Source of the DNA: Octopus vulgaris | Taxonomy: Eukaryota | Assembly: GCA_951406725.2 (NCBI GenBank) | Contig: OX597819.1 | Coordinates: forward strand, 108,128,001 to 108,192,000 | DNA: 64,000 nt | Reading direction: 5' to 3' | Shown here: piece by piece, positions 3,382 through 53,188 of the stretch | Position numbering within the stretch: position 1 is the stretch's first letter | How the letters are laid out: each line of letters starts with the position of its first letter | Notes under the pieces: generated by a model | What the model was told of the DNA's origin: nothing | The model's input: the letters and a program-made list of their open reading frames with translations, nothing else | The model's database searches: none | Translations under genes and position numbers: made by a program

Positions 3382-5048
3382 CTGTCCAACAGTTTGATAC
3401 CTCTGTAGTTATTTCTATCTAGAGCATCACCCTTACCCTTGTAGCAGTTGACTATGGTGCTGCTGCACCAGTCATTGGGTATGACTCCATTGTGAACTAC
3501 CTGGTTTACAATGCGGGTGACTATGGTATAGCCCACATAGCCAGCTGTTTTAAGCATCTCAGCAGTGATTCCTGATAGGCCAGGGGCTTTGCCTGGTTTC
3601 ATATCCTTAATTGCCTTATCTACAAGGGAGCTGTCTATTCGGGTAGCTGGTCCCTCTACTGGGTCAACATTTGGCAGGCTCTCCTCCTCCCATTCATTCT
3701 CCTCATTCAGCAGTCTTTCATAATGGCTTCTCCAAGCCTCTTTCTTTTCACTAGCAGTAAATGCAAGTGCCCCATCATCCATGCGGACACATTTCTCTCC
3801 TATAACATCACTATTTTCTCTGACACACTGTCTGGCAATCCGAAATACTTCAGCTCTTTGATCCTCGCGTCGCTGGACATTGGCAAACTTCTTCTTTTCT
3901 GCTACGTCTTTGGCTATGTATACCTGCCGCCCAGCCTCCCTTTTGGCTATCTGGTACAGTTCCCTGCTGCCCCCATCCTTCCAGGCTTTCCAGGCCCGTC
4001 TCTTTTTACAGATGGCTTTATCTACTGCACTATTCCACCACCACGTAATTCTAGGTCTGGAAGGGACTTTGCACCATCCACAGACTCGGTCTGTGGCACT
4101 CAGCAAGCTGTCCCGTAGGAATTCCCAGCTACCTTCTATGTCTGACGTCTGAAGCTCCTCCTCCCTCTCATCAAATTTCTTGATGAGTATGTCCCTAAAT
4201 TTCTGACCATGTGAAGGGTTCTTTAGCCTCCAAATCCTTCTTTTCTGGATTGGTTTGTTTCTTGGAGTCCTTCTGGCCTCAAGCTTAAAGTCACTGATGA
4301 TTAGTCTATGCTGAGGGATACATTCTTCACCCGGGAGGGTCTTTGTATTCAAGAGCAACCCTGCATCCCGCTGTCTGGTGAGGATGAAGTCTATTTGGCT
4401 AGCGGAGTCTCCTGACTGATAGGTTATAAGGTGGCAGACTGGCTTCTTGAAGTTAGTGTTGCAGATTGAAAGGTTACATGCATCACAGAATTCCAGCAGT
4501 CTAGTTCCCTCATCATTTCTGGTGCCAATACCATAGCCACCATGTACCCCAGTGAAGATACCCGATTCCCGCCCAACATGCCCATTAAAGTCTCCACCTA
4601 CAAAGATGAGGTCCTTGCTACTAGTCTTTGAAGTAGCCTGCAGAAGGTTATCATAAAAGTTGTCCTTCTGATCATTTGGTAGTCCCGCTTGTGGGGCATA
4701 GGCGGAGATAATCATAGCTGTGCCACTCTGTAGGACCAACCTGAGCTTAAGCACTCTATCGCAAACCCTGACAACCTCTATGACCTCATCCACCCATTTC
4801 TCCGCAAGGAGAATGCCTACACCCCCTACACCTTCCACGTTACCTTGCCAGAAGAGTTTGTACCTAAGTGCCTTGCCCGTGAGGACCCTAGCCGAAGCAC
4901 CTCTCCATCTTACCTCTTGTATGCAGCATACATCAACCTGTCTTCTCTCTAGCATCTCTACAATCTCACTAGACTTGCCTGTCAATGTACCAACATTGAT
5001 AGTGCCAACTCTGAAAACTGGGAAGGAGATGTGGGGGGAGGGGGGAAT
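3378..5048 (-). CDS. RTE ORF2 N-terminal part (APE endonuclease, linker, RT domain 0)
   Basis: ORF 3378..4985 extends in frame up to the TGA at 5049-5051. It ends at a -1 frameshift near 3385 (IKLLD|QVMKV expected). Confidence 0.85.
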   Translation of the reverse strand: MPPSPHISFPVFRVGTINVGTLTGKSSEIVEMLERRQVDVCCIQEVRWRGASARVLTGKALRYKLFWQGNVEGVGGVGILLAEKWVDEVIEVVRVCDRVLKLRLVLQSGTAMIISAYAPQAGLPNDQKDNFYDNLLQATSKTSSKDLIFVGGDFNGHVGRESGIFTGVHGGYGIGTRNDEGTRLLEFCDACNLSICNTNFKKPVCHLITYQSGDSASQIDFILTRQRDAGLLLNTKTLPGEECIPQHRLIISDFKLEARRTPRNKPIQKRRIWRLKNPSHGQKFRDILIKKFDEREEELQTSDIEGSWEFLRDSLLSATDRVCGWCKVPSRPRITWWWNSAVDKAICKKRRAWKAWKDGGSRELYQIAKREAGRQVYIAKDVAEKKKFANVQRREDQRAEVFRIARQCVRENSDVIGEKCVRMDDGALAFTASEKKEAWRSHYERLLNEENEWEEESLPNVDPVEGPATRIDSSLVDKAIKDMKPGKAPGLSGITAEMLKTAGYVGYTIVTRIVNQVVHNGVIPNDWCSSTIVNCYKGKGDALDRNNYRGIKLLDR

Positions 5049-13450: not shown

Positions 13451-14689
13451 TTAGGCAGTTGATTCTTTCAGATTGTCCAGGTAATCTCGAAACTGCTCAT
13501 AAGTAAGCCCCATTGCTTCGTAATCCCACTCTGGAGGGGCATTATGATGGTTACTATGACTGTCCGTACTAACTCCTGCTGCCCCTGTTGCACCTTCAGT
13601 AGGCATAGGGTTGGCTGTGATGCGGATGCTGCATTCAGATCCCATGTACGTAGACACAGTACTATTGCGATTGCTTCCACTTCCGCTGCCGCCCCCGGCG
13701 GACGTGGCAGCGGAAGAATTGGCTGATGCAGAGCCAGCTGACCTGGTGCTCTCTGTACCACTGTACAGGCGAGCACGCATCTGGTTCCCATTGAAGTCCT
13801 CCTCAGGCATCAGAGTCTGAGAGCAGCGCGTATTAACGGCATTCCGCTCCAGTGTTGCTTGACCGACCCACACCCAGTCACGGGCACTCGACACAGGCTC
13901 TGTTCCACCACACATGTCTTTTGGTATTTGCTTGCGGCGATAGCGTACAGTGAAGACAACACAGTTCACTGTAAAGACAATGATTGCCATGCAGAAAACA
14001 GCCAGCAGGACATACATGACAATCTCCAAGGCAGAGAGTTCTGGTGCTTTCACTACTTGTTGCAGCTGAGGTGCAGATTTTGGTCTCATTCCATCAACAT
14101 TGTTATTGTTATCAATAAGGAAGTCTTGTTGCACATGTTGTTGTTGATTCTGCTGCTCTTTATATTGGAATTGTCGGTGGTCAGCCACTTTAGGAATTTG
14201 CTTAATACCACTTTTGATGTTTTCATAGTAGATTTTGTTATCTTGAGCACTGATGTCAATAGTGGGCACAGAAAATGAAGTCTGGGGAGACGATTTTTGG
14301 TTCCAGCGGTCACTAGCACGGTTGTCATAACGATTAACTCGGTTGTCAAAGCGACCTGCTCGGTTGTCATAGTGACTATCTCGCTGCAGTTTGTCAAGGT
14401 AGCTTCGTTCATTAGTAAACTCAATGTTCATGTGAAGAGTTTTTGAGACAAGTGGTAACATATTTTTCTTGAAACATCTATGTCCAAGTCTAAGGGAGAT
14501 GTTCAACTGACCCTCACCTGGGCCTGTAGCAATTACAGTTGGTTGATAAGGCAAACCAAATGGTCGAGGGATTTTCAGCACTTGTCGATTAAGTGAAGAA
14601 ATTTCTAGCTTGTAATCTAATGGTGAAATATATTTTAGAGGAACAACTGTCTTATCTGTAAATTGCACAGCGATGTCCAACAGGGCTTC
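13451..14689 (-). CDS. TMEM132: TMEM132-family protein, last coding exon (end of ectodomain, TM helix, cytoplasmic tail)
   Basis: Acceptor ttatattccag|GAA. Encodes EALLDIAVQFTD, ELSALEIVMYVLLAVFCMAIIVFTVNC (matches the family TM motif [26 protein letters not shown]), DWVWVG, and the C-terminus YEQFRDYLDNLKESTA*. Stop TAA at 13451-13453. Confidence 0.95.
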   Translation of the reverse strand, partial: EALLDIAVQFTDKTVVPLKYISPLDYKLEISSLNRQVLKIPRPFGLPYQPTVIATGPGEGQLNISLRLGHRCFKKNMLPLVSKTLHMNIEFTNERSYLDKLQRDSHYDNRAGRFDNRVNRYDNRASDRWNQKSSPQTSFSVPTIDISAQDNKIYYENIKSGIKQIPKVADHRQFQYKEQQNQQQHVQQDFLIDNNNNVDGMRPKSAPQLQQVVKAPELSALEIVMYVLLAVFCMAIIVFTVNCVVFTVRYRRKQIPKDMCGGTEPVSSARDWVWVGQATLERNAVNTRCSQTLMPEEDFNGNQMRARLYSGTESTRSAGSASANSSAATSAGGGSGSGSNRNSTVSTYMGSECSIRITANPMPTEGATGAAGVSTDSHSNHHNAPPEWDYEAMGLTYEQFRDYLDNLKESTA

Positions 14690-14754
14690 CTGGAATATAA
14701 AACAGAAAAATTTTATTTAAGACAATAATGATAATGAAATAGAAATATGTTTTA

Positions 14755-25333: not shown

Positions 25334-27477
25334 ATTCCTGTCTGGTCTGTTAGAAAATTCCAGAATTTCTTATTGCCGTGTTTATTTAAATGAAGGAACA
25401 TGGGTTCAATCAGTAAACAAGTTTCCAGTAGACCATTAGTACATGGTGCATTGGGCTTGAAAGTATTGAAAAACAAAACTGACTGGCTAGATTTGAAAGC
25501 AGAAGCACGAGGTCATTGATTAAATACAAGAAAACATCTGTTCCATGTTCACCTCAGCATCACACACAAGGCAAGAACTTAAATTACAACTTCAGCCCAA
25601 GTGGACAATAATCTGCTTGATAGAGTCAACTGGGACTTTCAGGATGAGAATAAGTCCATGTTTAGAAGAAATAAATGAAAAGTGACAATTTTCAGACACT
25701 TGCAATTGTATGAGTTGATGATGTGACTTGAACTTGTTTGGTGGCATTTGCTTTCAAATGAAGATCTGTAAAATGGCATTTATGATTATTTTATCTCTTG
25801 TAAGTTATTATGTTTATGATTTTAAAGTACATCCTTTAACATAAAGTTATGTTAGAGACAATTCAAAAATGCTTAGGAACAAAAAAAACAAACAAGTGTA
25901 ATATTCACCCTTTAGTGTTCAAATTTCTTTGTCAAATATAATGTTTATTTATTTACATTGTTTTGAATTAATCATGCATAATCTTTTAGCTTCAAAACAG
26001 GTAGAATATTTGGGCTGCATATGGCCAGATTAAACACTAAAGGTTGAAATGAAATTAATATACTAAATACAGAAATTATAAAGACCACCTTTTCAAATCA
26101 TCAAAAACTTCAAACAGCCAGAATTTAAAGAAGACAAAGATTAATGCATTAAATAGTTTAAAAATTGTAGGAAGTGTTTGAAAATTTGTAATGTATGATG
26201 TGAAAAACTTAGAAGCATTTATAAATAATTTATTTAATATGTTTGCAGTTGCACAAATGTGTACATCTATATTTTGCTTTCTTTTGCATTTATATGATGA
26301 ACTTGTTTTGTGCAGAATCATTTTACATTTGAAGACATCCTACCAAGGATAGTAAAGTGCAAGCTGAAAATAGCCTTTTGCTTTTTTCAATCAATCCATG
26401 ATTGCAGAGTTTTGCTGCAGCTTCATTAGCTCATAAGCTGTAATCCAAATGTCTGCTTGAAAACACTGCTTTTGAAATAATAATTTGAAGCCTCATTTAT
26501 TAAGAGAATTCTCTCCATATCCCTGGTCTTGTGACAGAAGATTTTTTTTCACTCTTCATAAATCAATATTGGCACCATCAGTGCAAGATTCATTGCAGTG
26601 CAGCCTACAAACAAACTGCACCACAACAATCTATCAGTTATGGTGATATCTGACATGGAGCAACTGCAAATTCTTTGATAAGGTGTAGTACTTTGTCCTT
26701 CATCTTGCAACAGTATCACTTCCTTAAATATGAAAGCTGATCTGTTGTCTGATTCAGAGAAAGCCTGAAAAAAAAATAAGTCATTGCTTTGCATGTTGTC
26801 TCTCCTAAACTCAAAGCAGTGCAGCTATAGGAATTTGTGGTTTCTTTCCCAGTTTTTAATGAGAACCAAAATTCTGGCTCTGCATCTGTAGTCAAATATA
26901 AAATTACTCAGAAATATTACTACACCTGCGTCACATTCCAAGACATACTTGCATTAAGTTTTGGCTATTTGGAGTTTTCAATGATTCAGGTGTACTGTCT
27001 TTATAATTCATGCATATAATATCATATAAACTTTGTTTGATATTGCAGTTGATTTTTTTTTTTTATCTTAAGCATTTTTAATTATCTCTAAATTAACTTG
27101 ATATTAACAGCTTCACTGGCATCGTAAATACTTATAAATACCTTATAAAGACAAAAGATTCTTCTTTGAAAGTAAATGTCACCAAATATGTACAGACTAT
27201 TAACTCTAATGTTACAGAAATTTTTTAATATTGTCACCATCTTCTTAAACACAGCTCATTACAACAGCTGGTCTCATATACCTAAATATTGGGTTCATTG
27301 CCCACTGGAGTTGAAGACATAATTTAGATCCTTACCTTTAATGGGAAACCACAAAGTAAACTTTTGCACCAGTTTGAAATGAAAATTAAATTTTGTCATA
27401 GTTCTATATTTAAGAGATGAGAAATTATGTACACTATTTACATTTGACAAATATTTGTCCTCATCTTGTTTGTTGCT

Positions 27478-27523
27478 TGCACAACATTTCAACTGATATA
27501 CCCTCCAGCCTTCATCAGGTGTC
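27478..27523 (-). ncRNA. Minimal type I hammerhead motif, decayed
   Basis: gacac-CTGATGA-a-ggctg-gagggtatat-cagtt-GAAA-tg-tt-gtgca; stem II and stem I are weakened. Confidence 0.6.
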
Positions 27524-27669
27524 TTGGGAAAATTTAAAACCTGGGTTCTCATTCCTAAGGTATTTTTATATATTATTATTATTATTATTATTCAGGTCAC
27601 TGTCTGGAATCAAACTCGGAATCTTGAGGTTAGTAACCTGCACATGTAACCACTATGCCATATGCCTAT

Positions 27670-27742
27670 GGGCATATGGCATAGTGGTTAAGAGCGCAGG
27701 CTACTAACCCCAAGACTCCAAGTTCGATTCCAGACAGTGACC
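27670..27742 (+). promoter_or_regulatory. tRNA-derived head / internal Pol III promoter (mirror copy on the minus strand at ~27595-27667)
   Basis: A-box TGGCATAGTGG and B-box GTTCGATTCC at tRNA spacing, with a 7-nt loop CTACTAA. There is no T4 terminator in the downstream arm until the TSD. Confidence 0.75.
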
Positions 27743-27817
27743 TGGAACGCCGCCGCCGCCGATGACAACGACAACAAATACCTTAGGAATGAGAACCCAG
27801 GTTCGAAATTTCCCCAA

Positions 27818-27860
27818 GACACCTGATGAAGGCTGGAGGGTATATCAGCCGAAACGTGTT
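27818..27860 (+). ncRNA. Minimal type I hammerhead motif with a 3-nt deletion at the cleavage site
   Basis: gacac-CTGATGA-a-ggctg-gagggtatat-cagcc-GAAA-c-gtgtt, versus GAAAcgttgtgtt in the 38451 copy. Confidence 0.7.
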
Positions 27861-28653
27861 AACAACAAACAAGATGAGGACAAATATCTGTCAAGTGTAA
27901 ATAATATACATAATGAAATTTTGTCATGTCCAACATCTCACTATTTTGTCCAGTTTTGAAAAGTTTCATCTTTTTTTTTTTTTTGGTACACTATATCTAG
28001 TCTACTCCAGTATTTTCCAGCAAATTTCCTTCCTATATACCCAAGCTTAAACTCATCCAGTGTCTCCCATTCAGTTCAGTCAATGCAGGTTATACTCAAG
28101 GATTTACGGTACTACTCAAGTCCAGCACTCCTTTGGTTACAACTACAAGGGTTCCAGTTGATCTGACCAAACAGCCTGCTCAGGAAATTAACATGCAAGT
28201 GGCTGAAAACTTCATTAATTTGTCGATGGAGTGATGACTAAGCCCTCCACAGACAAGCACACCATTAATGGAGTTTTCAGGGAGATTCAGCATGACTCAG
28301 AATGTGACAAGGCCAGCCCTTTGAAATACAAGTACTGTAAATCCTCGAGTATAGCCCGCCCTTGAGTATAATACGCAGGGGATTTTTAGGGGGCTGTACC
28401 TCTGAAAAACCAAGAATCTTTGCACCCTTTCCTCTTTATGTTTCCCTTACTCTTCACCATTATGTATCTTTGTGGTTTATCCTGTACTGTATACCATACA
28501 CGCACTTTAGCTAATGTTACTAACTTTCTTTATTTAATTTATTGATGCTTCCTTTGGCCCTTTTCTTATTTTACCCTTTCCCAATTAGTTCTAGTGTACC
28601 TGGGCACTGTATACAATAAGTTTATTATCATCATTATCATCATCATCATTATA

Positions 28654-28689
<36 letters not shown>

Positions 28690-28809
28690 CTCAGTATTAT
28701 CTAGACCTATCCTATTTAGTCTTGTCCATTCCAGCACCAGGCATTCTATATAATTTAGATTTGTGAAGTTATATTTCGCATTCACCAGCTTTATCTAATC
28801 TAATATCTC

Positions 28810-29229
28810 TTTTACTCTTTTACTTGTTTCAGTCATGTGACTGTGTCCATGGAGCATCTTAGTCGACAAATCGACCCCACTTATTCTTTGTAAGACTAGT
28901 ACTTATTCTATTGGTTTCTGTTAAGTTACGGGGATGTGCATTGGTTGTCAGCGATGTTGGGAGGAGCTTCTTTCAGTTTCCGTCTCAAATCCACTCACAA
29001 GGCTTTCTATAGTAGAAGACACTTGACCAAGGTTCCACGCAGTCCGGGACCATGTAGTTCGTAAGCAAGCTACTTACCACACAGCCACTCCAATGCCTGT
29101 TAAATATCATTTAATATTATATAATCTTTTCTCCTAGAATGTCTTTTGCCAAACTGTTAAGTTACGGGGATGTAAACACACCAGCATTGGTTGTCAAGCG
29201 ATGTTGGGGAGACAAACACAGACACACAA

Positions 29230-29272
<43 letters not shown>
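28810..29272 (-). mobile_element. SINE family A copy riddled with small deletions, plus a second partial copy ending in (TA)n
   Basis: Colinear with the reverse complement of 24885-25333 but with many short gaps. Confidence 0.8.
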
Positions 29273-29274
<2 letters not shown>

Positions 29275-29276
<2 letters not shown>

Positions 29277-29407
29277 TGTTTGGAATAAAGTGATGTTCTC
29301 TGGCCTTGCTATCAACTTCATACTCCACACTCCAAATGATGCGACCAACTTCAAAACCAGACAAATTATTGTCAACCTGCAGTTTCCATTTGAAGATTTC
29401 TTGTGGC
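29275..29407 (-). CDS. TMEM132: TMEM132 exon, 5' part only (no donor found)
   Basis: Acceptor tcttttgttgcag|G. Encodes PQEIFKWKLQVDNNLSGFEVGRIIWSVEYEVDSKAREHHFIPNK (family EI...IxWxVEY motif), then runs directly into (TA)n. Confidence 0.75.
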
Positions 29408-30254
29408 CTGCAACAAAAGAATATGTGGATATATCAATATCATATACAGAGGAAGAAAGAAGGAAGGTAGGGAAGCATGTCACCATATATGTACATAACA
29501 TTTTTGAGGATTACTCATGGATTAATTCACGAATACAATTTTGTGCTAAAACATTAGATGATATATGGAAGAAAATAAAGAGTGGCATGAAAAGATAAAT
29601 GTTAAAACGATGGCTGTGATAATGGTGGGGATGTATGGTGCCTACATTTCCATCTCTTACTCATTATGTTCCTTGACAGCATCCATATAATGTTACTCCT
29701 TCTTCAGGAACATCTCATTTAATTCTCACCCTCTCTTTTAGCAAAGGGACTATGTTACATCTGACTCCTCACTCTTCAGTCATAACATCCGTTGAACAAG
29801 AGACTGCATCGGATCTGAGTGTATCTGATATATATTGTCATGTTGTCTCAGTTTCTGTCTCTGACTACAAACACCTTGTGGTAAGTGCCTGCTACTATAG
29901 CCTTGAGCCAATCAAAGTCTTGGGAATAAATCTGGTACATGGAAACTGAAACAAGCCCATTGTATGCACACTTGTGCATGCGTGTTTGTGCCTATGTGTA
30001 CTCTTGCATTGACATCATGTTATGCTTATAGACAAGCATCATTGTCATGCAAACAATACTGTTTCTTTCCAGTCTTCTTTGAAGAACACGTCCAGTTATG
30101 GAGAAATATTACTATGCATAGAAATAGGTGAGAGTTGGCAACAGGAAGGGTATCTGGCCATAGAAAATTTGCCTCAACAAACACCATAGCACCCATGCAA
30201 GCAGGGAAAATTGGTATATAAGCAAATGATACTGACGATCTATCTATCTATCTA

Positions 30255-30304
<50 letters not shown>

Positions 30305-30534
30305 TAAATACACATAGGGTGGTGAGCTGGCAGAATCATTAGCACACCAGGTAAAATGTTTAGTGGAATTTTGTCTGTTTGTATGTTCTGAGTTAAAATT
30401 CTGCACAGGTTGTTTTTGCATTTCATCCTTTCAGGTCAATAAAATTAAGCACCAGTTGATCACTTGGGTCGATGTAATCAACTTACCCCTTCCCCTAAAT
30501 TGCTGGCCTTGAGCCAAAATTTGAAACCAATATA

Positions 30535-31410
30535 CAGGGTGCGATGGGTAAATTGTCACCATTTTATGTTTTAAATTTTGCGTATGTGCATGGTTTGTTT
30601 CCGATTTTGTCAATTACACATTACAGTAGAGTCAGAGGGGCACTGTCTGTGGGGAAAACAGCATCATTATGCAATTAACTCTGTCAGAAATTTGGAAATG
30701 ACATGCTGTACTGCTTGACATTCGCACTGGAAGCTCCAATATGAACATTTCAGAATATTTGGGTGCCAATCTAAGGAAAGTGCAATCTAAGGACATGTAC
30801 TGAAAGTGATAAAAATCAAACATCCAGTCAACATCATGGTGTTTGGAGTGATCACAAGTGATGGCGATATTATACCTCCATTCATCTTCCCACACAGCCT
30901 CAGATTCAAGATGGAGGCCAACATCAAGTGCCTGGAGGAGATAATGCTGCCCTGGGTCAAGAGGGTGGCTGCTAGAAGACTCTATGTCTGGCAACAGGAC
31001 TCTGCACCATGCCACAAGCAGGAGAATCTAGTCATGGCTGTCAGACTATTTCTGTGACCACACCACCCCTAATATCTGGCCACCTAACTTCCCAGACTGC
31101 AACCTGCTTAATTATTATGTATGGGGTGCAGTTGAGTGAGGGACCAACAAAACTACTTGTAACACCAAAGATGAACATGACAAAGATGACATGGATTATG
31201 GCAGCATTCACCAACTTAAACAGGGAGACCATTCAGAAGAGTTGTGGGAGATTCTGAAGTCATCTGGAGGCCATGGTTGAAGTCAATGGCGATTTTATTG
31301 AATAAAATTTTGGTAAACTTATGTAATTTTGGTAAATATATCTGTTAAAATGAGATGTCAATTTTATTTTCATTTTTGCGTAATTCAGACAATATATTCA
31401 CCGCACACTG
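30535..31410 (+). mobile_element. Deleted, decayed maT-like (Tc1/mariner superfamily) element
   Basis: TA|CAGGGTGCG...CGCACACTG|TA ends. Relics KHPVNIMVFGVITSDG, YVWQQDSAPCH and PNIWPPNFPDCN. Confidence 0.85.
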
Positions 31411-31829
31411 TATATACACATGCACACATATAAAAAAAGATAAAAGGTCCTTCTGATGTCATAGGTTCATAAGGTTGGTTTCTCAGAATCTGTGGAGTAT
31501 ATATATATATATATATATACCCCTGCCCTGAATAGGACACAGGTCTATCACAAGCTTACTCATTTTTGCCAGATGAGTCGACTGGAGCAATGTGACATGA
31601 AGAGTTTTGCTCAAGAACACAATGCATTGCCCATTCAAGAATCAAAACCACAATCTTTCAATCATGAGTGTAACATCCTGACCACTAAGACATGCACCTC
31701 TACATATACAATTATATTTAATATGAATGTGTGTGTATCTATATATAAATATATATATAAGTATATATATAAATATATATATATAAGTATATATATGCAA
31801 AATACATACACACACACACACATATATAT

Positions 31830-31860
<31 letters not shown>

Positions 31861-32610
31861 AATACACACACACACACACATATATATAAACATGCATGCA
31901 TGTTTATATACACATGTATACACACACATGCACATATACACATGTCATCTTCATTCCAGTTGGTGCAAATTTGGCTGCATGTTTGAACTGTCACTTTCCT
32001 ACCGGATAATCTTGGATTCAGTCCAACTGTCTGTCTGTCTGTCTGTCTGTATGTATGTATGTATGTGCTTGTGTTTGTTACTTTATCTTGACATCACATG
32101 ATACTTTGTAAGCAAGTGCCAATATCACACAAACAGCATTAATACATTTCCACTCTTTCAAGGGGAAATATTACTTTTTATGAAACAGGTGAGTATTGGC
32201 AAAAGGAAGGGCATCTGGTCATAGAAAATTCACCTCAACAAATTCTGTCCAAACCAAGCAAGCATAGAAAAGTGGATGCAAAAATGATGATGACGATAAT
32301 GATATATGTATGTTTGTATTACACACACACACACACACAAAGACTCATACGTATATCAATGCTACTATAACTATTCTGGGACTTCAATGGCCTGGAGCTA
32401 ATAAAATCTAATTCTAGCAGAAACACATATTGACTAGTGGAGGCTTACGATAGAAATACTGCAGCTGCTATTGCAGCTATATGTATGCTGCTGCAACTGC
32501 TACTACTACTGCTACTGCTACTACTACTACTACTTCTACTATTACTACTGTCACCACTACCACCATCACCACCACAATTACTATTGCTACTACTAACACC
32601 ACCATAGTTG

Positions 32611-32648
<38 letters not shown>

Positions 32649-33269
32649 GTCATCATAACTAACTTAAACTGCCACCACCACCACTGTCTCCATCATATGA
32701 GATAATGAGATCTGAGAGATATAGTGTACATTTTCCGAAAAATCCTATTTACAGCAAGGAAATTATGATAGAAATTGATGCGTGTGCCCGTTGGTGATAG
32801 TTTGTGTAGTGGTGTGTGTGTGTGCATGAATTTGGGTGCATAGTGATGATGTATGTGTGTGTTTGTGAGTGTGCGTACGTGCATGCATGTAGTGATGGTG
32901 ATGTGTATATGCATGGTTTTTTGTTTGTGAATGATTGTGAAAGTAGAAGTAAATGTATGTGTCATGGTATGATTGTGCTGTGTGTGTGTAAGTGTGCATG
33001 CAGTATGTGTGATAGTGCCAGTGTGTGAGTGTGTTCATGTATTATAGTAGTGTGTATTGAGGTGGTGCTCAGCATGTAGTTGTTATTTTGCACCAGGACA
33101 GCCCCAATTGAACACACCTCTCAAAACATTCCAACTGAGACCATCCCATTTTACTTATGCAGAGGGCTCCCAGGTTTAATTTATCCATGTCCTTTGCTAA
33201 TATGGCAGGGTATGATTTGAGGAAGATTTGGCTGCTATTTCTAGTGAGCCAAACAAGCATACATTAGCA

Positions 33270-34100
33270 GTGTGTAGTGGTTGTGCAATACATAGTGTGA
33301 GGTATTGGTGTTGTGTGGTTCTATGTAGGGGTGTGTAGTGGGTGGTGTGTGGCATGCAGAGATAGTACATAGTTTGTGGTAGTAGTTTGGAGTGGTGTGC
33401 AGTTGTGTGTGGTCATGATGGTAGCTTGTGAAGTGGCATGTGGCAGTGGTGCGTGGAGTGGTATGTAATGGTGTCAACATGTGGAGCAGTGTGTGTTGGT
33501 GGTGATGGCATGTAAAGTGGTACATGGTAGTGGTATGTGGAGTGGTTTGCAGTAGCACCAGTATGTGTAGTTGTGTGCAGTGGTAGCACATGGAGTGTCA
33601 TGTGGAGTGATGCATGGTTGTGGCATGTGGTGGCACATGGAGTGGTGATGTGTGAAGTGATGTGTAGTGGTGCACAGAGCAGTGTGTGGTGGTACATGGA
33701 ATGGTATGTGGAGTGGTGTGTGGTGGTGGCAGGTGGTATGAAGTATAGCACAGGTGTAGTGGCTGTGATGCGGTATGTGTTGGTGATGGCGTACAGTGGT
33801 AGAAGTATGTAGAGTTGTGGTGATGGCTCATAGAGTGGTCTGTGGTATAGCAGTGTGCAGTAGTGGTATTGTAGTGGTAGTATAGTAATATGGAGTCCAG
33901 TGGCAGAGTGATGTGCAATAAAGTGTGGTATATAATGGTGGCGTGTGGTGTATATTAATTGTGTATAGCAGCTGTGAATAGTGGTATTAAATGGTATGCT
34001 GCTATGTAGTGCTTGTATGATATGTATAGAGGTGCAATAGAGTGGGAGGAGGGTGCTTGTTTGTAGTCAAACTGTGTAGTGTGTGAGTGTATGTAGTGGT
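33270..34100. repeat. GT-rich low-complexity tract
   Basis: Degenerate gtggt/gtagt/gtgtg units; the overlapping His/Thr/Val ORFs are compositional artefacts. Confidence 0.85.
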
Positions 34101-34438
34101 ATCTGTGCATGTAAGGATGTTTGTTGTTTGTGTCTGTGTATGTATTATGTTTGAGTGTATCATCCATGGACAGCTTAAATAAAACTGGATTATTCCATGA
34201 GAGGATTAAAGAGATGAAGACATGAAGAGAAGATGGAGAAAAGATTGAGATAAAGCAATAATAAAGTGACAAATATGAAAATACAGAACAGCTTTGGAAA
34301 CAATGTGAGAGATAAGGTGGGAAGTTGTATTATTCAATACAAGGTCTATCACATTAACCCTGATGAAATGAATGAGCTCAACTATAGGGCCATCATTTTT
34401 GTATTACAAAGAAATCAGAGTTGATCTCTTCAAGTGTA

Positions 34439-34655
34439 TATGAGGGGATGCTGAAAAGTTCCTGGCTCTAGATAAAAGAAAATACAGGAGGATCAGTTAA
34501 TCATGATTTTATTGAATATGTTCCCCTCTCACATTCACACACTTATTGCAGCAGTCCTTCAATTTTCCTAAGACTTATAAAAGAACTCAGAAGGCTGGGC
34601 CTCTAACCAGGCCTTTTATGATACCCTTAAAACCAAGAACTTTATGGCATTCCTT
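34439..34655. mobile_element. Mariner-like terminal fragment
   Basis: TA-tgaggggatgctgaaaagttcc resembles irritans-type mariner TIRs; no coding remnant recognised. Confidence 0.5.
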
Positions 34656-35020
34656 CGAATGTGTGTGTATTTGTTTATATATGCATGTGTGTCTGTGTGC
34701 CTATGTGCATGTGTAAATGAGCTTTTATTTCCCATTGCTTTCACATGTAAGTGCTGACTGTAAACAAAAGATCCATCATTCATGCAGATGGTGTCCTTGG
34801 CTTGCAATCACTGTAAAAGTATGCTTTGGCTGTTCACTGTTCAATAGGCAGGGGATAAATGTCATGCTTAGAAACAGGTCAGGGTTAGTATCAGGAAGGG
34901 CATCTAACTGCAGAAAAGTCTGCCTTATTGTAGTCTTATCTGCCCCATAAAAGCATAAAAAGGTGGACATTAAAAAACAATAACGGTATGTATGTTTGTA
35001 TGTATGTATGTATGTATATA

Positions 35021-35157
35021 AGGAAGTTAAAAGTTATGGCCAGTCATAGAGTGACCATTGGTTTTGCACCTATAAGGTGCTTAGCAGTATAGGTGAAGCA
35101 CTTTATAGATATGAAATTAATAGTCACTCTATTATTGGTCATAATTTTTAACTTCCT
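35021..35157. mobile_element. 137-bp fold-back MITE
   Basis: aggaagttaaaagttatggcca / tggtcataatttttaacttcct, atagagtgac / gtcactctat and ctataaggtgctt / aagcactttatag all pair. Confidence 0.75.
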
Positions 35158-35330
35158 AAAAATATATATTATTGCTCTAACATTTTAGAGTGTGCTTCTT
35201 TTTGGGATATATGAACTACTGAGGATGTATATATATATATATATAAATTATATATATAAAACAAATGAGTGAAAGAGAAAATGGAATTCACAAAATTCCT
35301 TATTAATCATAACAATTGTTTCAACCCAAG

Positions 35331-35427
<97 letters not shown>

Positions 35428-35675
35428 AATCCCGCATCATATCCCGGTTAACCTATCACGGTCACCTATTGTGGTTTATTATTTAAGATTACGTTGGTTC
35501 CCCCTTGATGTTGTTTTGCATTTATAATAAAATAAATATACACAAATTATAAAAATAATTAAAAAAAATATACAGTGCATCACTGTTTCTACTTCATGGA
35601 TTTTCACCTATCATGGGGGTGCTGGTTTGCAATGTAACATCTGTGATAGACGAGAGATTACTGCATATCTATGTA

Positions 35676-36135
35676 CAGGGTACGGTGAATGAATTGTCAG
35701 CTAAATTACGCAAAAATGAAAATAACATTGACATCTCATTTTAATAGGTGTATTTACCAAACTTACATAAAGATATCTTGAAATATAAAATAGGAAAACT
35801 ATTCAATAAAATTGCTATTGGCTTCAACCATGGCCGCCAGACGAATACGGAATCTCTTGCAACTCTTATGGATGGTCTCCTTGTTTAAGTTGGTGAATGC
35901 TGCCATAATCCTTGCCTTCAGTTCATCTTTGGAGCTTCCAGTGTGAATGCCAAGCAGTACAGCATGTCATTTCCAAATTTCTGACAGAATGAAGTGCATC
36001 ATGGTGCTGTTTTTCTCACAGACAGTGCCCAACTGACCCTACTATACTGCATAGTCAACAAAATCAAAAACAAACAATACAGATGTCCAAAATTAAAAAA
36101 AAATCAAATGGCAACAATTTACCCATTGCACCCTG
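35676..36135 (-). mobile_element. Shorter deletion derivative of the 30535-31410 maT-like family, inverted
   Basis: TA|CAGGG...CCCTG|TA; both ends align to the reverse complement of 30535-31410. Confidence 0.85.
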
Positions 36136-36167
<32 letters not shown>

Positions 36168-36171
36168 TACA

Positions 36172-36356
36172 AAATTAGAAAAAAAACACCTTTTATCAAT
36201 TCAAAATGAACAATTAAATTACATATAATAGAAATATTAAAATTTTAATAATTTTAATATTTTTAATTTTAATATTTCTATTATATGTAATTTTCTAGAA
36301 GGTGTAATTTAATTGTTCATCTTGAATTGATAAAAGATGTTTTTCTTTCTATTTTT
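36172..36356. repeat. Nested AT-rich inverted repeat
   Basis: Outer ~47-bp arms (caccttttatcaattcaaaatgaacaattaaattaca / tgtaatttaattgttcatcttgaattgataaaagatg) and inner ~26-bp arms (ttacatataatagaaatattaaaatt / aattttaatatttctattatatgtaa). Confidence 0.85.
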
Positions 36357-36458
36357 TTAATATATATATATATTATATTGTGTGAAATTTGATTTAGTAT
36401 TTCTAAATTGAATTTTTTTTCCCCTGTAAGTTTGGATTTATATTCCCTCAAATAATAA

Positions 36459-36512
<54 letters not shown>

Positions 36513-37078
36513 TGTTTTGCCTTTATTAACAATTACAATATGGAAGTGTTATTCATGGTAGCCATTTAAAGAGTACAGAAACCTTTAATAAAATAAAAGT
36601 GAACTTAACGATATATGTGTGTTTTAAATTATGATTTCCTCCGCTATGTAATTGCTTCAGCTTCAGTAAATGATAGCAGAACAAGTCTCTTGACAAGTAA
36701 ATCTCTGAGTCAAGATGTTGTTTCAAAGAATCTTAAATGATAACATACTTATTGTTGTTAACCTTTACAAGATGGCTGCACTACAAAGAAGGTACACACA
36801 CACACACACACACAGATACTCTCTCTCTCTCTCTCTCTCTTCCTCTCACACACAGCTCAAAATTAAATAGACAGCTCTCATTATACCATTCCTACTGTGC
36901 AGACTACTGATGAGTAAAATGCCCAATAGGTTAAATCATCAAAAAACTGTACAAGGCATCATGACTACTAAATTATTAGATCAAGTATCTAAATGCATCA
37001 AATGACTTTATTTTCTTTCTAGCAATCTTTCAGAAATGATGGCATCCATTTGCTTTTGATCTCTCTCTCTCTATCTCT

Positions 37079-37110
<32 letters not shown>

Positions 37111-38272
37111 TCATAATTCAGTGAAGGGAAGCCAGGATTTAACCATTGGATGATTTGCAGTGGGATTGCTCACCCTAAGTAATCCTACCTACTTCTTACT
37201 ACACAATGCGGTTAGCCTGAACCTGGACTATGCTTGAATGCTCATATGTTTTGCACTGTACATCACAACAATCTCTAAATTTTTTTGGCACAGTTCCTTT
37301 TTAGCATGCTGGATAAAAAAAGGGTTGTAAGCTCCTTGCTTGACCCTTTTCCATTTCTTGCATGCACAGAAGATTGTGAGTGGTACCAGACAATCTTTAC
37401 ACACCAAAATGTAATTAATTGAGATAGAGAGAGAGGGAGAAAGAGGGGAGGGGTATAGATGGAAGGCAGAGAGATTGAAGGAGAGCAGGGGGGAGAGAGA
37501 TGGAAGGAGAGAGAGGGGAGGGAGGGAGGGAGGGGGTACTGAAATTTTATTTATTGCCCTTGAAGGATGAAAGGCAAAGTTAAACAGTGAAATTTGAACT
37601 CAGAATGCAAAGAGCCAAAACAAATACCACAAGACATTTGTTCACCATACTAATTAATCTAGAAATTGAATGCCTTCATATTACACACACATCTATATCA
37701 AAGTATACAAGAATGAAGTATGTATGTAATTATACTGTTTTCTGTCAATGGATCATAGCCATGCCAGGGCATCACCTTCGAGGTTGAAGCAGCTCAAAGC
37801 AGCCCCTGCAGTTATTTCAGTTGCTCTATCTATATTTATGGAATAGCTGAAAGATTTATTGATGTAGAGGGATGTAATTCAAGACAAACCACATCTACAT
37901 GTGTAATAGGGTGCTACACATTCTAAATCTAGCAAATTTCACACATACGTTATTGGTCAACCTGAGGCTGTAATAGAAGCCTTTAGCACGAGATAGTGTG
38001 CAATGCACACACAAACACACACAAGTTCTAGTGCAACCTATTCAAATGAATATGGTAAAACCACATAGAAAAGGTATTCTGAATATGAACATATTGTATT
38101 AAAAGTGTGAGTCCAACAAAATATGTTTTGTTTTGTTCAATGAACACACCAGGAAACACAGAACCATGTTAGTGGCATTCATTTAAAGCTATCGCAAAAT
38201 AAAACATAATAATACTACATTATTTACATTATTTACATTTGACAAATATTTGTCCTCATCTTGTTTGTTGTT

Positions 38273-38318
38273 AACACAATGTTTCGGCTGATATACTCTC
38301 CAGCCTTCTTCAGGTGTC
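38273..38318 (-). ncRNA. Minimal type I hammerhead motif with one substitution in stem III
   Basis: gacac-CTGAAGA-a-ggctg-gagagtatat-cagcc-GAAA-ca-tt-gtgtt. Confidence 0.7.
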
Positions 38319-38450
38319 CTGGGGAAATTTCGAACCTGGGTTCTCATTCTCAGGGTATTTTTCAGTGACCTGAATAATAGTAATAATAATAATAATAATA
38401 ACTTCAAAGAATACCTTAGGAATGAGAACCCTGGTTCGAAATTTCCCCAG

Positions 38451-38496
38451 GACACCTGAAGAAGGCTGGAGAGTATATCAGCCGAAACGTTGTGTT
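38451..38496 (+). ncRNA. Intact minimal type I hammerhead ribozyme (Penelope-type)
   Basis: Stem I gacac/gtgtt; core CTGAAGA plus an extra A; stem II ggctg/cagcc; GAAA; palindromic stem III AACGTT. Predicted cleavage after GUU at 38491. Confidence 0.8.
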
Positions 38497-41400
38497 AACA
38501 ACAAACAAGATGAGGACAAATATACGTTAAATGTAAATAATGTACATAATTCTTCATCTCTCAAATATAGAACTGTATGATAATACTAATAATAAAAAAT
38601 AATTCATACAGTGGTGTTTGTTCTTCATGTTAAATCCAATCCTGTTACTTGAAATTTGAACTCAGAACGTAAAGATGAATGAAACGCTGTTAGCATTTTG
38701 CCTGGCATCCTAACAATTTTTCCAACTCGCTGCCTTAATTCAATGAGTAATATCAGTTCAGTTTCTCTTTCGTGATTATTGTTGTTTTTGCAGTTTGTGT
38801 TGTTTAGCCCCAAGTCTGCACCGATTGAATAAATCTATGATCAAATGTGTTCCAGCCATGCCCATCTTGTATTTTGTTTATTGACAGTATATTCTTCCTT
38901 CTTTTCTGTTTTTTTTTTAAAGACATGATGTATTGGAATAAATTTGGATGTTATTTCTAGCAGCTTGAGTGGTTGCATAGAAGCTCCTTTTTCATAGTTG
39001 ATGTTGTTCTTGTTGCTGATGGTGGTGGTGATGCCGCTGATGTTCTTGTTGTTGCTGGTCTTATTTATAAACCTGTTGATATTTAACAAAATATTACAGG
39101 AGTTGTTTATGTTATTGTCAGGGCTGCTGTCTTATAGTCACCATCACTATTGATATTGTCATTGTAGCTGTAGCTGTAATTGTTGTGGTGAGTATGTTTA
39201 GTGCCATTTGAAACAGGAGACTGAGATGAAGTGGTAGAACACACATTGAGACAAACTCATACACAAACTCACATACAAATACTCACACAATGACAGAATC
39301 ACACACACAAAACAAACAAAAAATACATACACAGAGGAATTTACACACAAACACTGGCAGACCTATACATACACATACAAAAAAACAAAAGGAAACACAC
39401 ATGCATACACACACAAACACACACACACAAACACTAGTTAGCTGACACTTAAGGTGTAGAGTGTTGTTTTTATGTCAAACTACTTCAGGGAACCAATTAG
39501 TAGATTGACAGACATCCAGATGTTTGTTACATTTCAACAACCTGAACAATCCACCCATCCGACCCACCCCACTTTCTCTCTTCTTCTCTATCCATACCCT
39601 CTGAATATTCTGAAATGTCTGAAATAATGAGGACATTTCTATCTGTGTCACATCATGATCATCTTCTGACATGGTTGGTGGAGCAGTAGCTTGTGTGATC
39701 CTAGAATTCCTACAGTAATGTTGTTTGAATCTTAGCTCTGATTAAGGCTTCAGTTAGTGCTCCAGCTTGGCTCTGATTAGAGAGGTGCAGCTTGGGTTCT
39801 GATTAAAAAATCCAGTTATGGGTTAGAGCTCCTACAATGACTCCAACTAGGGCTCTACAAGCATATGATGAGAGCATGTGCATGGTCATTTAACTAACAA
39901 AAATAGCTAAATTCCCCTCACATCATATACAACCATTTTAAAGAAGGAAGAACACATAGTATGATATTGTTCTAGATACACTTACACAGATGGGATGATC
40001 ACAGGTTTGTCCAATTAGTGCTGACCTTGATGCTAAACAACAACAACAGCTAGAACACTACTAGAGCAATTGATTACTCCTGATTGTTTAGGATAATTGA
40101 CTTTTCCTTGTCCATATGAAGAATTTTAGTATTGGAGCAAACAAGACTGACATAAGAGATCTCATTCTTTTGTTGTTGTTGTTGTTGTTATTGGAAGAGT
40201 CATTAGGAGATTGGGTAGAAAGTTTTTTCAGATTTCTCTCCCAATTTCAACTTCTGCTGTGGTCCACTTTGCCTTTGGACCCTTCTGGGTTGATAAATAA
40301 AATATCAGTCAAGTAGTGAGGTTGCTTCTCTTCTCTGTCTTGAGGTCATCTATGTTGAAAAGGCCAAGAAATGAGCATTCACATCATGGCTGCATTAATC
40401 TTTTCCATATCACTTCTGTAGATCTACTAAAAGAGTCCCGATCCAGCTGACCTATAATCAAACATGTTCAATTTCATCTTTTTATAGACACAGTCTCTCC
40501 ACCCACCTCTCTGTGTAATTACATTATCCAATGTGTTTCGTTTTTTTTTTCTTTTAAGACAATGCTTGTGATTTGAGGAAGACATTGAAATCATTTCTAT
40601 TAAGAGCTGTGATGGTTTTAACACTAGTGGCTGTAGCTGTTGTCATTGGCTTGTGGTAGCTACAGTTGTTATTCTTTGGTGGTTATACTGGTTATTGTGG
40701 TTTGTCCGTAGGTAAACTCTGAATTAAAATACAATGATGCAGTGGCGTGTTTTACAGATTATTTGTACGTCTTATATATGTTGCTGAAATGTTTTGATGA
40801 TATAATTCTCAGTAATCTGGGCTAAGATTGAATCTGGAACTTCTATTTACCAAACGGCTATGCTTTAACCACTGGCCTTACTATCCTGAAGGACAACAGT
40901 GCTGTCATTTTAAAGATCTTAAACATAAGATTTAACCAACTTGTCTCCATATATTTTGGTATGTCAAGTGCAGGCTGCCACTAAATGTATGTGTGAGTGT
41001 ACACACACACACACATGTAAACATATAAATGCAAAAGAAACTGGAGTAAAAATAGTTTTTGAATACTGAAAGTTGAGTAGACTACTATTTCAATGAAGCA
41101 GAAAGAAACCTTGCAAACTGTTACCCAGAGTTTCATGTAAACCATTCATCAGACAGTTTCTGACCAGCATGAAATTCCGAGTAACAGTTTGTGAAGATTT
41201 TTTTTCAACTATAGTAATATAGAGTGCGTGTGTGTGTGTGTGCATGTGCATGCATATGCACACGTGTGTGTATTGGAGGCAACAAATTTCATTTAAGCAT
41301 GTGGTTGGCTGTGAGTACATGCTACTGACAAAGTCACAATGATGCAGAAATTAATCTAGCATACTCACTAGCCACTGCTGTGATGTGTTTTGTCTCACTA

Positions 41401-52020: not shown

Positions 52021-53188
52021 TTAAGGTGGTGAACTGGCAGAATCATTATTACCATGTCAGGGAAAATGCTTTGCAGTATTTCATTCATCTTTATATTCCA
52101 AATTCAAATTCCGTTAAGGTTGATTTTGCTTTTCATCCTTTTGGGGTTGATAAAATAAGTACCAGTTGAATACTGGGGTTGATGTGATTGAGTTATCCCT
52201 CTCTCGAAAATGCTGGCATTGTGCCAAAATTTGAAATCATTATTTATCTTTTAGTTGTTTCAGTCATTGGACTGTAGCCATGCTGGGTCCTTATTTTATC
52301 AACTCTGAAAGGCTGAAAGGCAAAGTCAACCTAAGCGGCGTTTGAACTCAGAATGTAAAGAGTCAGAAGAAATGTTGCTAGGCCTCTTGTCTGCGGCTGG
52401 TTTGCCTAATTTTAAAGGCAGTGCTCCAGCATGGCCATAGTCAAATGAATGAAACAAGTAAAAGAGTAAAAGAGTAAGTCTGCCAGCTTGCTGCCTTGGT
52501 ATGGTGTATAATAATGGCATGATCCAGGATGGAGAGCTGTGAATGGGTGACATGATCAATTAAAGACCAACAATGATGGCATCATAAGTACCAGTAATAT
52601 ACTGGTGCTACTAATTATATATAGTAGAGAAAGAGATAGGTAAACTAAGAGAGGGTGAGAGAGGGAAGGAGAGAGAGAGGAGAGAAAAAGAAGTAGACAA
52701 GGAACTGGAGAGAGAGAGAGGAGGAGGGAAAGAGAGGCAGAAAGAAGGAAATGAAGAGTGAGGGAAAAGAGAAGGAAAGAGAAGCTGAAAGAAACAGAGA
52801 GAGTGGAGGAGGGAAAGAGAGGCAGACGGAAGGAAATGAAGAGTGAGGGAAAAGAGATGGAAAGAGAAGTTGAAAGAAACAGAGAGAGAGAGAGAGAGAG
52901 AGAAAGGTTATTCACCTCATATAATGTAAAGGAGAGAGGAAGCAAAAGACAGTAAGAAATGAAATATGGGATGGAAATGTGGTGGGGAGATCAAAAAGAC
53001 AAGTCAGAAATAAATTCCAGGGACAACTACCACCCACACAAACAACTTATATATATCACCCCTCCTCCCACACCCAACCATACCAAACCTTCTTTTAGAT
53101 TCCAAAAATCTAAGAACTTGGTGGTGAATTCCGAAAATCCCAGACGCACCTACCACCTTCATACTTACATTTTTCTAACACAACTGCC

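Follow-up and report, generated by a model that had tools for sequence, protein, structure and literature searches.

Do variants shared by the two arms of a palindrome show that one arm was copied from the other? The question is raised by two palindromes, near 27 kb (locus A) and 38 kb (locus B) of the window, the whole 64-kb stretch of octopus DNA that was analysed. The first-pass annotation had proposed that a cDNA folded back and copied itself at the start of a tRNA-like head, and had supported this by three variants said to be private to each locus. Our analysis suggests that each palindrome very probably arose as a single insertion of the Penelope-like element (PLE) type, and that both arms were made by snap-back from one template with a probability of roughly one in two. 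The shared variants contribute little to this estimate, as two of them also vary in copies from other loci and all three occupy positions that a hammerhead tolerates.

Two insertions of a composite element

The 516 nt of locus A and the 359 nt of locus B are each bordered by a 12-bp target-site duplication (TSD) with exact junctions. At locus A the two TSD copies (27388-27399 and 27916-27927, plus strand) are identical at 12/12 positions (null P(12/12)=0.00025; AT-matched 0.0018), and at locus B (38206-38217 and 38577-38588, plus strand) they agree at 11/12, with one mismatch (null P(>=11)=0.00055; AT-matched 0.0044). Since each palindrome lies within one 12-bp TSD, each is a single insertion. 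This supports the earlier view that both arms come from one retrotransposition event, and two independent insertions per palindrome are ruled out. An assembly fold-back artefact is also ruled out, because the arms are 7-10% different and TSDs are present. Both insertions sit in an octopus gene, where each adds a long hairpin to a pre-mRNA intron; such hairpins might serve as a substrate for RNA editing in cephalopods.

Within the unit, a tRNA-like head with A and B boxes is followed by a microsatellite linker, a 142-nt end module and a tail of 24-26 nt. The arms are arranged head-to-head in 2/2 loci, the inverted copy adjoining the 5' end. At locus A the left arm (minus strand) carries the 24-nt 3' tail (27400-27423), which aligns with 38551-38574 and is absent from both short arms, then a pLTR-like end module with 10 private changes (27424-27565), an (AAT)n linker (27566-27592) and a full tRNA-like head (27593-27667; A-box/B-box pattern match 27606-27660). 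The right arm (plus strand) comprises a full head (27670-27744; A box 27677-27687, B box 27722-27731), a linker of GCC/GAC/AAC triplets (27745-27775) and a tail-less end module whose last base is the G at 27915 (27776-27915). At locus B the left arm (38218-38365, minus strand) consists of 3 nt of the head end, a linker shrunken to about 7 nt, with some 30 nt missing, and a tail-less end module. The right arm (plus strand) has an (AAT)n linker (38373-38408), the end module (38409-38550) and a 26-nt 3' tail found in this arm only (38551-38576). The tail is thus confined to one arm, the left at locus A and the right at locus B. The short arm ends in both loci at a fixed position, 24-26 nt before the end of the long arm. 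The earlier description of one full and one truncated arm was therefore correct as to the shape, but the truncation is not random.

The A-box/B-box pattern at tRNA spacing matches twice in the 64 kb, both times at locus A, with 0 matches expected and 0/100 shuffled controls reaching two; the Pol III boxes of the head were assigned with a consensus that we take to be the standard one. ARAGORN calls no tRNA at either locus A head. Head and module are joined in two independent insertions with different TSDs, although at locus B no more than the final 10 nt of the head remain, and head and body appear to move as one dispersed, non-coding unit. The 3' end is the hammerhead module with its fixed tail, not a LINE-derived end, poly(A) or a simple-repeat tail. 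Judged from these features, the element would work like a SINE but with a PLE-type end.

The end module bears a predicted minimal type I hammerhead. It is intact by sequence in the right arm of locus B (38451-38496, plus strand) and is also seen in the left arm (38318-38273, minus strand); at locus A the left copy is decayed (27523-27478, minus strand), with 2/5 helix I pairs broken, and the right copy (27818-27860, plus strand) has lost 3 nt at the cleavage site. Pairing was counted in 42/44 cells, as against 16-52% for slid controls, and a strict core pattern is matched by 2/4 arms, with 0 expected. The arms show an extra base after position 9, a G10.1-C11.1 pair and a palindromic 15.2-16.2, features given for minimal hammerheads in the available part of PMC4209133. 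Free-energy folds of single arms (z -0.5 to -2.8, four modules) did not single out the hammerhead, so its assignment rests on motif and pairing; the four hammerhead rows display no covariation. Rfam gave no match at gathering score, neither to a hammerhead nor at either locus A head, and its low-threshold miRNA matches were discarded as a mere reflection of the hairpin. TSDs, hammerhead and unlike linkers are features that the first-pass annotation did not mention.

Neither the 516-nt nor the 359-nt unit contains an RT plus GIY-YIG endonuclease ORF. The 51-codon open frame of the module, one reading frame, was used as a protein query and gave 104 matches, which we treat as chance translations of repeat copies. 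No RT or GIY-YIG domain was present in 17 of the longer matches, three long ones (P0048, P0059 and P0071) were unrelated, and these protein matches to one reading frame revealed no autonomous PLE partner sharing the end module. The end motif could be recognised in 16/104 translated copies, eight tailed, six tail-less and two unclear; the two fixed 3' ends thus recur elsewhere. Tandem relatives of the end module account for 9/104 matches. Three module motifs do not occur in the single PMC8557442 supplement searched, and pattern scans of metagenome contigs, viral contigs and prokaryote genomes gave 0 matches. Parts of 27300-28000 occur in 24 runs, and among the 20 listed at least five contain half of the words or more; we draw no conclusion on junctions or expression from these counts. 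Taken together, we propose that the element is a non-coding, SINE-like Octopus retroposon in which a tRNA-like Pol III head and a microsatellite linker precede a hammerhead-bearing PLE end module (pLTR plus tail).

Shared sites and divergence of the arms

The three motifs of the earlier annotation, including CTGATGA at 27 kb and CTGAAGA at 38 kb, are present exactly as written. Of the 142 columns in an alignment of the end module from all four arms, 115 are constant and 22 singletons, while two have three states and three are informative. All three informative columns (27524/27817 versus 38319/38450, 27514/27827 versus 38309/38460 and 27502/27839 versus 38297/38472) pair the arms by locus, none by side and none crosswise (n=2 loci), and the observation that the sites track with locus holds. 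With a star tree and recurrent mutation as the null (40,000 simulations), this by-locus pattern arose in 0.26% of simulations under uniform rates and in 0.7% under gamma rates; at least three sites favouring any single topology arose in 1.7% and 9.5%, respectively. The rarity of the pattern suggests that the pairing probably reflects shared ancestry.

Shared ancestry is a weaker statement than copying from one template. The sites cannot be called private, as two of them are found in every one of their four possible combinations in translated copies from other loci. Nor are arms of the same locus closer overall: they differ at 13/139 and 10/142 positions within loci, compared with 10, 10, 18 and 18 between loci. 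All three sites are packed into 23 of 142 nt (P=0.06) and lie where a hammerhead can accommodate change (core N7, loop II and just upstream of helix I), which could also account for their clustering. Because the hammerhead tolerates them and two vary in other copies, these sites argue only weakly for a single template. Taken alone they are no proof of fold-back copying; a pair of RNAs from one subfamily would yield the same pattern.

The arms of locus A, moreover, do not appear to share one history. Their linkers are wholly different, (AAT)n on the left versus GCC/GAC/AAC on the right. Across the head and the first 80 nt of the module there are 17 differences, of which 14 move the left arm toward A/T, two the right arm and one is neutral (p=0.004). 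The right arm keeps 4/5 scored CpGs and the left arm 1/5. Private changes in the module alone number 10 on the left versus four on the right, which is not significant (p=0.18).

Junctions and the origin of the second arm

The axis was previously placed at the start of the tRNA-like head. This is correct for locus A, where the dinucleotide AT at 27668-27669 lies immediately before the +1 of the head in both arms (best axis 27668.5; 50/60 paired). It fails for locus B, in which neither arm has a full head: the junction (38363-38372, plus strand) is the head's own 3-bp stem with a 4-nt loop (38366-38369), and the inner axis, 38367.5, falls among the final 10 nt of the head, at its 3' end. An axis at 38384.5, which lacks fold-back homology, is superseded by this hairpin-centred one. 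The axis position is thus variable, lying at +1 in one of two loci, a result that the first-pass annotation had named as one that would refute fold-back; yet snap-back stays compatible with it if the cDNA had stopped early.

Both arms of locus B are cut at one place, at this hairpin, and 9/10 bases pair outward from the loop. If the arms were independent, such matching cut-points would have a chance of 0.07-0.13. A snap-back stem of at least 3 bp is available at 4-8% of positions only, and one with two GC pairs at 1-2.5%. That the arms are cut alike, at a position of this rare kind, supports snap-back, and the junction appears to be better evidence for fold-back than the three sites, although these also agree with one template.

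Under the snap-back reading, a PLE protein would move the element in trans, each palindrome being one insertion. An endonuclease would cut the two target strands in a staggered manner, about 12 nt from each other, and the TSD is the trace of this. One target 3' end would then prime at an outer start site and give the tailed arm, by analogy with the two start sites described in the available part of the anole PLE study (PMC11167929). The cDNA would reach the RNA 5' end at locus A or stop early at locus B, fold back on a 2-3-bp stem, as the observed geometry of the junctions would allow, and copy itself. Finally, the second target 3' end would prime at an inner start site, opening the hairpin; this may explain the fixed tail-less end and the signature of a one-repeat slip, both of which are visible in the arms. 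The three shared sites would be variants of the source lineage brought in with the RNA, rather than mutations private to the locus.

Several observations weigh against this reading. The unlike linkers of locus A and the 14 versus two decay toward A/T are unexpected of twin copies of the same age. The linker missing from the left arm of locus B calls for an extra deletion, and the 2-nt spacer of locus A for either about 4 nt upstream of +1 in the hairpin or untemplated bases. Annealing of two cDNA ends between molecules would leave identical junction letters. Finally, no autonomous partner was found among the protein matches to one reading frame, and n=2 loci. The first-pass idea of fold-back copying is plausible, and the 38-kb junction agrees with it, but it had been put forward before, its three sites are weak and the 27-kb arms seem differently descended.

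The unlike linkers, lopsided decay and 2-nt centre of locus A would all be accounted for if both cut 3' ends had primed on two RNAs, one per start site, and a self-complementary end of 2-3 nt had then linked the cDNA ends head-to-head. The shared sites would then reflect one subfamily dominant in the RNA pool at the time. In agreement with this, cleavage and extension of both strands, two start sites and a predicted dimer are described for the anole PLE protein (PMC11167929, available part), and the within-locus distances are no smaller than 2/4 of the between-locus distances. However, it requires that the two cDNAs of locus B ended no more than 7 nt apart (0.07-0.13) and at a self-complementary position, and in each locus the two arms agree at all three sites though the family has other combinations. 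We consider this explanation possible but less likely than snap-back.

Priming of both ends on one RNA, with the outer-site RT displacing the cDNA of an earlier inner-site RT and the strands annealing by terminal microhomology at the same RNA end, would explain the shared sites, the equal 5' ends of locus B, the fixed tail-less end and the TSD. It would account for the linker and decay asymmetry of locus A no better than snap-back does, and we regard it as unlikely. Somewhat more doubtful still is gene conversion after insertion, either arm-to-arm over a short tract or by overwriting from a younger dispersed copy. The clustering of the three sites and the CpGs of locus A, as if its right arm were younger, could be read in this way, but the rest of the arms is not homogenised (10-13 differences), tolerant hammerhead positions explain the clustering as well, and conversion makes neither palindrome nor TSD. 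Palindromic masters, that is, whole two-arm units transcribed and retroposed or MITE-like DNA elements, would let arms share sites by locus and furnish a few upstream bases for a hairpin at +1, but are highly improbable given that the centres of the two loci differ, the TSD junctions are exact in both, and the ends are not the terminal inverted repeats of a MITE or foldback transposon, one carrying 24-26 extra nt.

Snap-back remains our preferred reading. More tentatively, and at somewhat less than even odds, we suggest the full scheme of a Pol III SINE with a PLE, not LINE, motor, whose palindrome is newly built at each insertion: the cDNA would snap back at a stall site or on reaching the RNA 5' end, and inner-site priming would follow with a telomerase-like slip on a 9-nt repeat. 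The family is short, its 5' end and its two 3' ends are fixed, and it offers diagnostic sites and a linker that varies, so that one- and two-template models are separable by counting.

Comparison with known retroelements

In L1 twin priming, an inversion inside one TSD results when the opposite target end primes as well. The L1 pieces correspond to separate stretches of a single RNA without overlap, whereas here the same segment is present twice. Ohshima and Okada reportedly described tRNA-derived retroposons (SINEs) of octopus in 1994, and the present element could be one of these. The unusual part would be the Pol III-type head on a PLE end: the searchable literature, which leaves Repbase, Dfam and most subscription papers outside, holds no description of this combination in octopus, the schistosome elements being close.

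Like the octopus element, SM-alpha and Sj-alpha of Schistosoma are SINE-like, tRNA-related Pol III repeats that bear a type I hammerhead, according to the available parts of PMC6765202 and PMC4918200. They form head-to-tail tandems with a canonical hammerhead freeing monomers, in contrast to the solitary head-to-head pairs, minimal PLE-type hammerhead and PLE tail found here; the octopus element also keeps its 5' head and copies sequence 3' of the predicted cleavage site. Metazoan non-LTR retrozymes are likewise short and non-coding, carry a type I hammerhead and are proposed to be moved by PLEs (PMC7229834 and bioRxiv 10.64898/2026.07.22.740005, both in part). They are defined as tandem arrays, while both octopus loci are head-to-head pairs, and the searched passages of the bioRxiv study make no mention of a tRNA head.

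The closest layout is that of PLEs themselves, with an inverted copy, a tail on one end and a TSD (PMC3846280 and PMC8557442, available parts). Self-priming was proposed in 2013 for head-to-head PLE palindromes, there on an antisense template (PMC3846280, in part), and both the palindromic layout and the fold-back idea are thus already known. The origin of PLE tandem and inverted structures is nevertheless named as unresolved in the available part of PMC8557442; if the element is indeed a PLE-driven Pol III SINE, its defined 5' end and shortness would let genome data alone settle how PLE inverted repeats form. Endonuclease-positive PLE units, as far as described in the available parts of PMC3846280, PMC8557442 and PMC11167929, share with the octopus loci the head-to-head copy, one-sided tail, single TSD, junction palindrome, hammerhead and AT-rich target, and an ATG inside the hammerhead core is common to PLEs and the A-type arms. 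The TSD is 9-10 bp in the rotifer examples versus 12 bp here, and the tail 30-40 nt in published PLEs versus 24-26 nt. The octopus unit differs further in having no RT/GIY-YIG ORF, in measuring less than 300 nt and in carrying a tRNA-like Pol III head upstream, a head that, on a PLE end, would make PLEs further partners in moving SINEs.

Anatomy and genomic setting of the element

Read in sense, the element consists of four parts. The 75-nt tRNA-like head carries an A box and a B box, spaced as in tRNA genes (two pattern matches against none expected); ARAGORN called no tRNA in it and Rfam gave no match. A microsatellite linker separates the head from a 142-nt end module, which resembles the end repeat (pLTR) of Penelope-like elements (PLEs), is common to all four arms of the 27-kb and 38-kb palindromes (loci A and B) and carries a minimal type I hammerhead with a 5-bp helix I, the core, one extra base, a 6-bp helix II and no helix III loop. 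Pairing is kept in 42 of 44 cells across the arms, and the motif shows the PLE-hammerhead hallmarks given in PMC4209133; by sequence it is intact in the locus B right arm only. The fourth part, a tail of 24-26 nt, is found on one arm per locus (A left, B right).

A single 12-bp target-site duplication (TSD) bounds each two-arm unit (12/12 in locus A, 11/12 in locus B), and each palindrome is therefore one insertion. The TSDs also disfavour an assembly artefact as the source of the palindromes. Oriented alike (27388-27929 and 38204-38588), both TSDs have a T before them and abut the tailed arm with a (C/T)AT end, and in each locus GT comes directly after the tail-less-side copy; with n=2, this common context may reflect a cut-site preference.

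Locus A (27388-27927) sits between two exons of TMEM132E, six of which were placed between 13454 and 29406 (minus strand). The last exon corresponds to the frame 13451-14716 (minus strand), which matches a protein named for Octopus bimaculoides at 99% identity; the small exon encoding residues 421-434 was not located in the window. Locus B (38206-38588), upstream of the last exon located, is probably also intronic, since no match to residues 1-375 turned up in the window. The 64 kb contain no copy besides these four arms. The window also holds a LINE (1858-5048, minus strand; not a PLE) whose endonuclease and RT frames span 556 and 516 codons, an imperfect MITE-like palindrome of 137 bp without hammerhead core (35021-35157), an AT-rich 221-bp palindrome adjoining (TA)n runs (36153-36373) and another dispersed repeat in two inverted copies spaced 122 nt apart (52088-52361).

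Locus-wise variants and the tail-less end

The first-pass annotation noted three variant sites that track with the locus, and indeed all three informative columns among the 142 of the end module pair the four arms in this way. Shared ancestry of the paired arms at these sites is likely, because recurrent mutation on a star tree seldom gives the by-locus pattern (0.26-0.7% of simulations; at least three sites for any single pairing in 1.7-9.5%). Over the end module as a whole the loci are poorly separated, with 13 and 10 differences within loci and 10, 10, 18 and 18 between them. The sites occupy tolerant places of the hammerhead, namely the base just ahead of helix I, position 7 of the core, and loop II.

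The further claim that these variants are private to a locus could not be confirmed: translated copies from elsewhere display the site 1 and 2 states in each of the four combinations. A search with the 51-codon frame open across the end module returned 104 proteins, most of them apparently related repeats that happen to be translated; their residues report sites 1 and 2 only, site 3 being silent in this frame. Among 19 diverged, hand-picked nearest matches, these were K/D (the locus A type) in six, R/D in three, K/E in one, R/E (the locus B type) in one and other or unaligned in eight. Because the copies are diverged, homoplasy among them is possible. A copy named for O. bimaculoides is the closest and has the A type; mixed states occur in an O. 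sinensis gene model. As translated copies including the closest carry it, the A state looks ancestral and would be of little value for pairing arms. Nine of the 104 matches (P0042-P0049 and others) hold at least two head-to-tail copies of a related module, spaced at 40-43 codons, and form a tandem, retrozyme-like sister family; the two looked up come from ENA contigs. In P0040, an O. sinensis gene model of a cysteine-rich membrane protein, the first 34 residues are translated from the element, through either exonisation or prediction error.

One full and one truncated arm had been expected at each locus. The tail is confined to one arm, but the end of the short arm is fixed and no random truncation: in both loci it lies 92 nt past the ATG position of the hammerhead core. 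This end falls on two 9-nt tandem repeats (38529-38558, with counterparts in the remaining arms). The second repeat closes with the first repeat's G in both short arms; the locus B left arm additionally has the first repeat's A replacing C, whereas the locus A right arm keeps C. The end motif is recognisable in 16 of the 104 matches and, under a rule formulated after data inspection, the residue reporting the A/C base is N in 6/6 tail-less against 0/8 tailed copies, two being unclear (p=0.0003). P0052, one of these six, bears a tail further on, and P0056 is a tailed exception from the hand-picked set. Unlike the locus-wise sites, this base seems to follow arm type, which suggests a one-repeat slip where synthesis begins. 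Tail-less copies tend to close on a duplicate of the first 9-nt unit.

One template or two

Both loci display a single insertion with two fixed 3' ends, a head-to-head joint and near-equal 5' ends. The element RNA would very probably be handled in trans by a PLE protein. We favour, at a probability of about 0.5, a snap-back of the cDNA followed by second priming at an inner site. The symmetry axis, previously placed at the start of the head, lies there in locus A but not in locus B, where the inner axis (38367.5) lies in the middle of a small hairpin (3-bp stem, 4-nt loop) in the head's own 3' end. Outward from it 9 of 10 bases pair, and the left arm then omits most of the linker. A cDNA halted at this junction could self-prime; a comparable stem is available at only 4-8% of positions. 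Fold-back copying from one template, as first suggested, is favoured by the locus B junction, but the linkers and lopsided differences of locus A speak against it.

Double priming on two RNAs, a more tentative reading, would account for locus A: its linkers have no triplet type in common between arms, and 14 differences move the left arm towards A/T as compared with 2 for the right (p=0.004; private changes in the end module alone split 10 to 4, p=0.18). Same-age twin copies should decay alike, so that two templates or later conversion are suggested there. Two cDNA ends annealed through the same three bases would also give identical junction letters at locus B, but the cutting of both locus B arms at one place (chance 0.07-0.13) argues against two RNAs. 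The 2-nt spacer at the centre of locus A suits end-joining, or a hairpin for which about 4 bases from upstream of +1 were used. The two loci on which the comparison rests point different ways. Double priming on a single RNA is improbable, conversion, in spite of the locus A asymmetry, slightly more so, and palindromic masters are very improbable.

In locus A, most of the differences between the arms are C-to-T changes when read on the sense strand of the left arm. Over 27400-27915, minus-strand RNA (host-gene sense) folds more stably than the plus strand (-371 versus -313 kcal/mol), because most arm differences turn into G-U pairs.

Relation to Penelope-like and hammerhead elements

In PMC3846280, a PLE insert is completed by an adjacent inverted pLTR and flanked by a 9-bp TSD; one inverted pLTR carries the tail, and junction palindromes are interpreted as self-priming. 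PMC8557442 terms the same layout typical and leaves its origin unresolved, and PMC11167929 describes a PLE protein that cleaves and extends both target strands and has two start sites, bounding the tail. The palindromic layout is already on record for PLEs, and self-priming has been proposed for it. Loci A and B agree with this layout point by point, but they lack an ORF and possess a Pol III-type head, on which grounds the element would be SINE-like in its working, with a PLE end. No autonomous partner PLE was found in the 17 longer matches scanned among the 104 proteins returned with the frame crossing the end module. Within the literature searched, which did not extend to repeat databases or the 1994 octopus SINE paper, we found no description of an element that joins a tRNA head to a PLE end and inserts as an inverted pair, the feature that appears new here. 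Schistosomes harbour tRNA-related elements with hammerheads (PMC6765202 and PMC4918200), related to tRNA like the octopus element, but arranged in tandem arrays.
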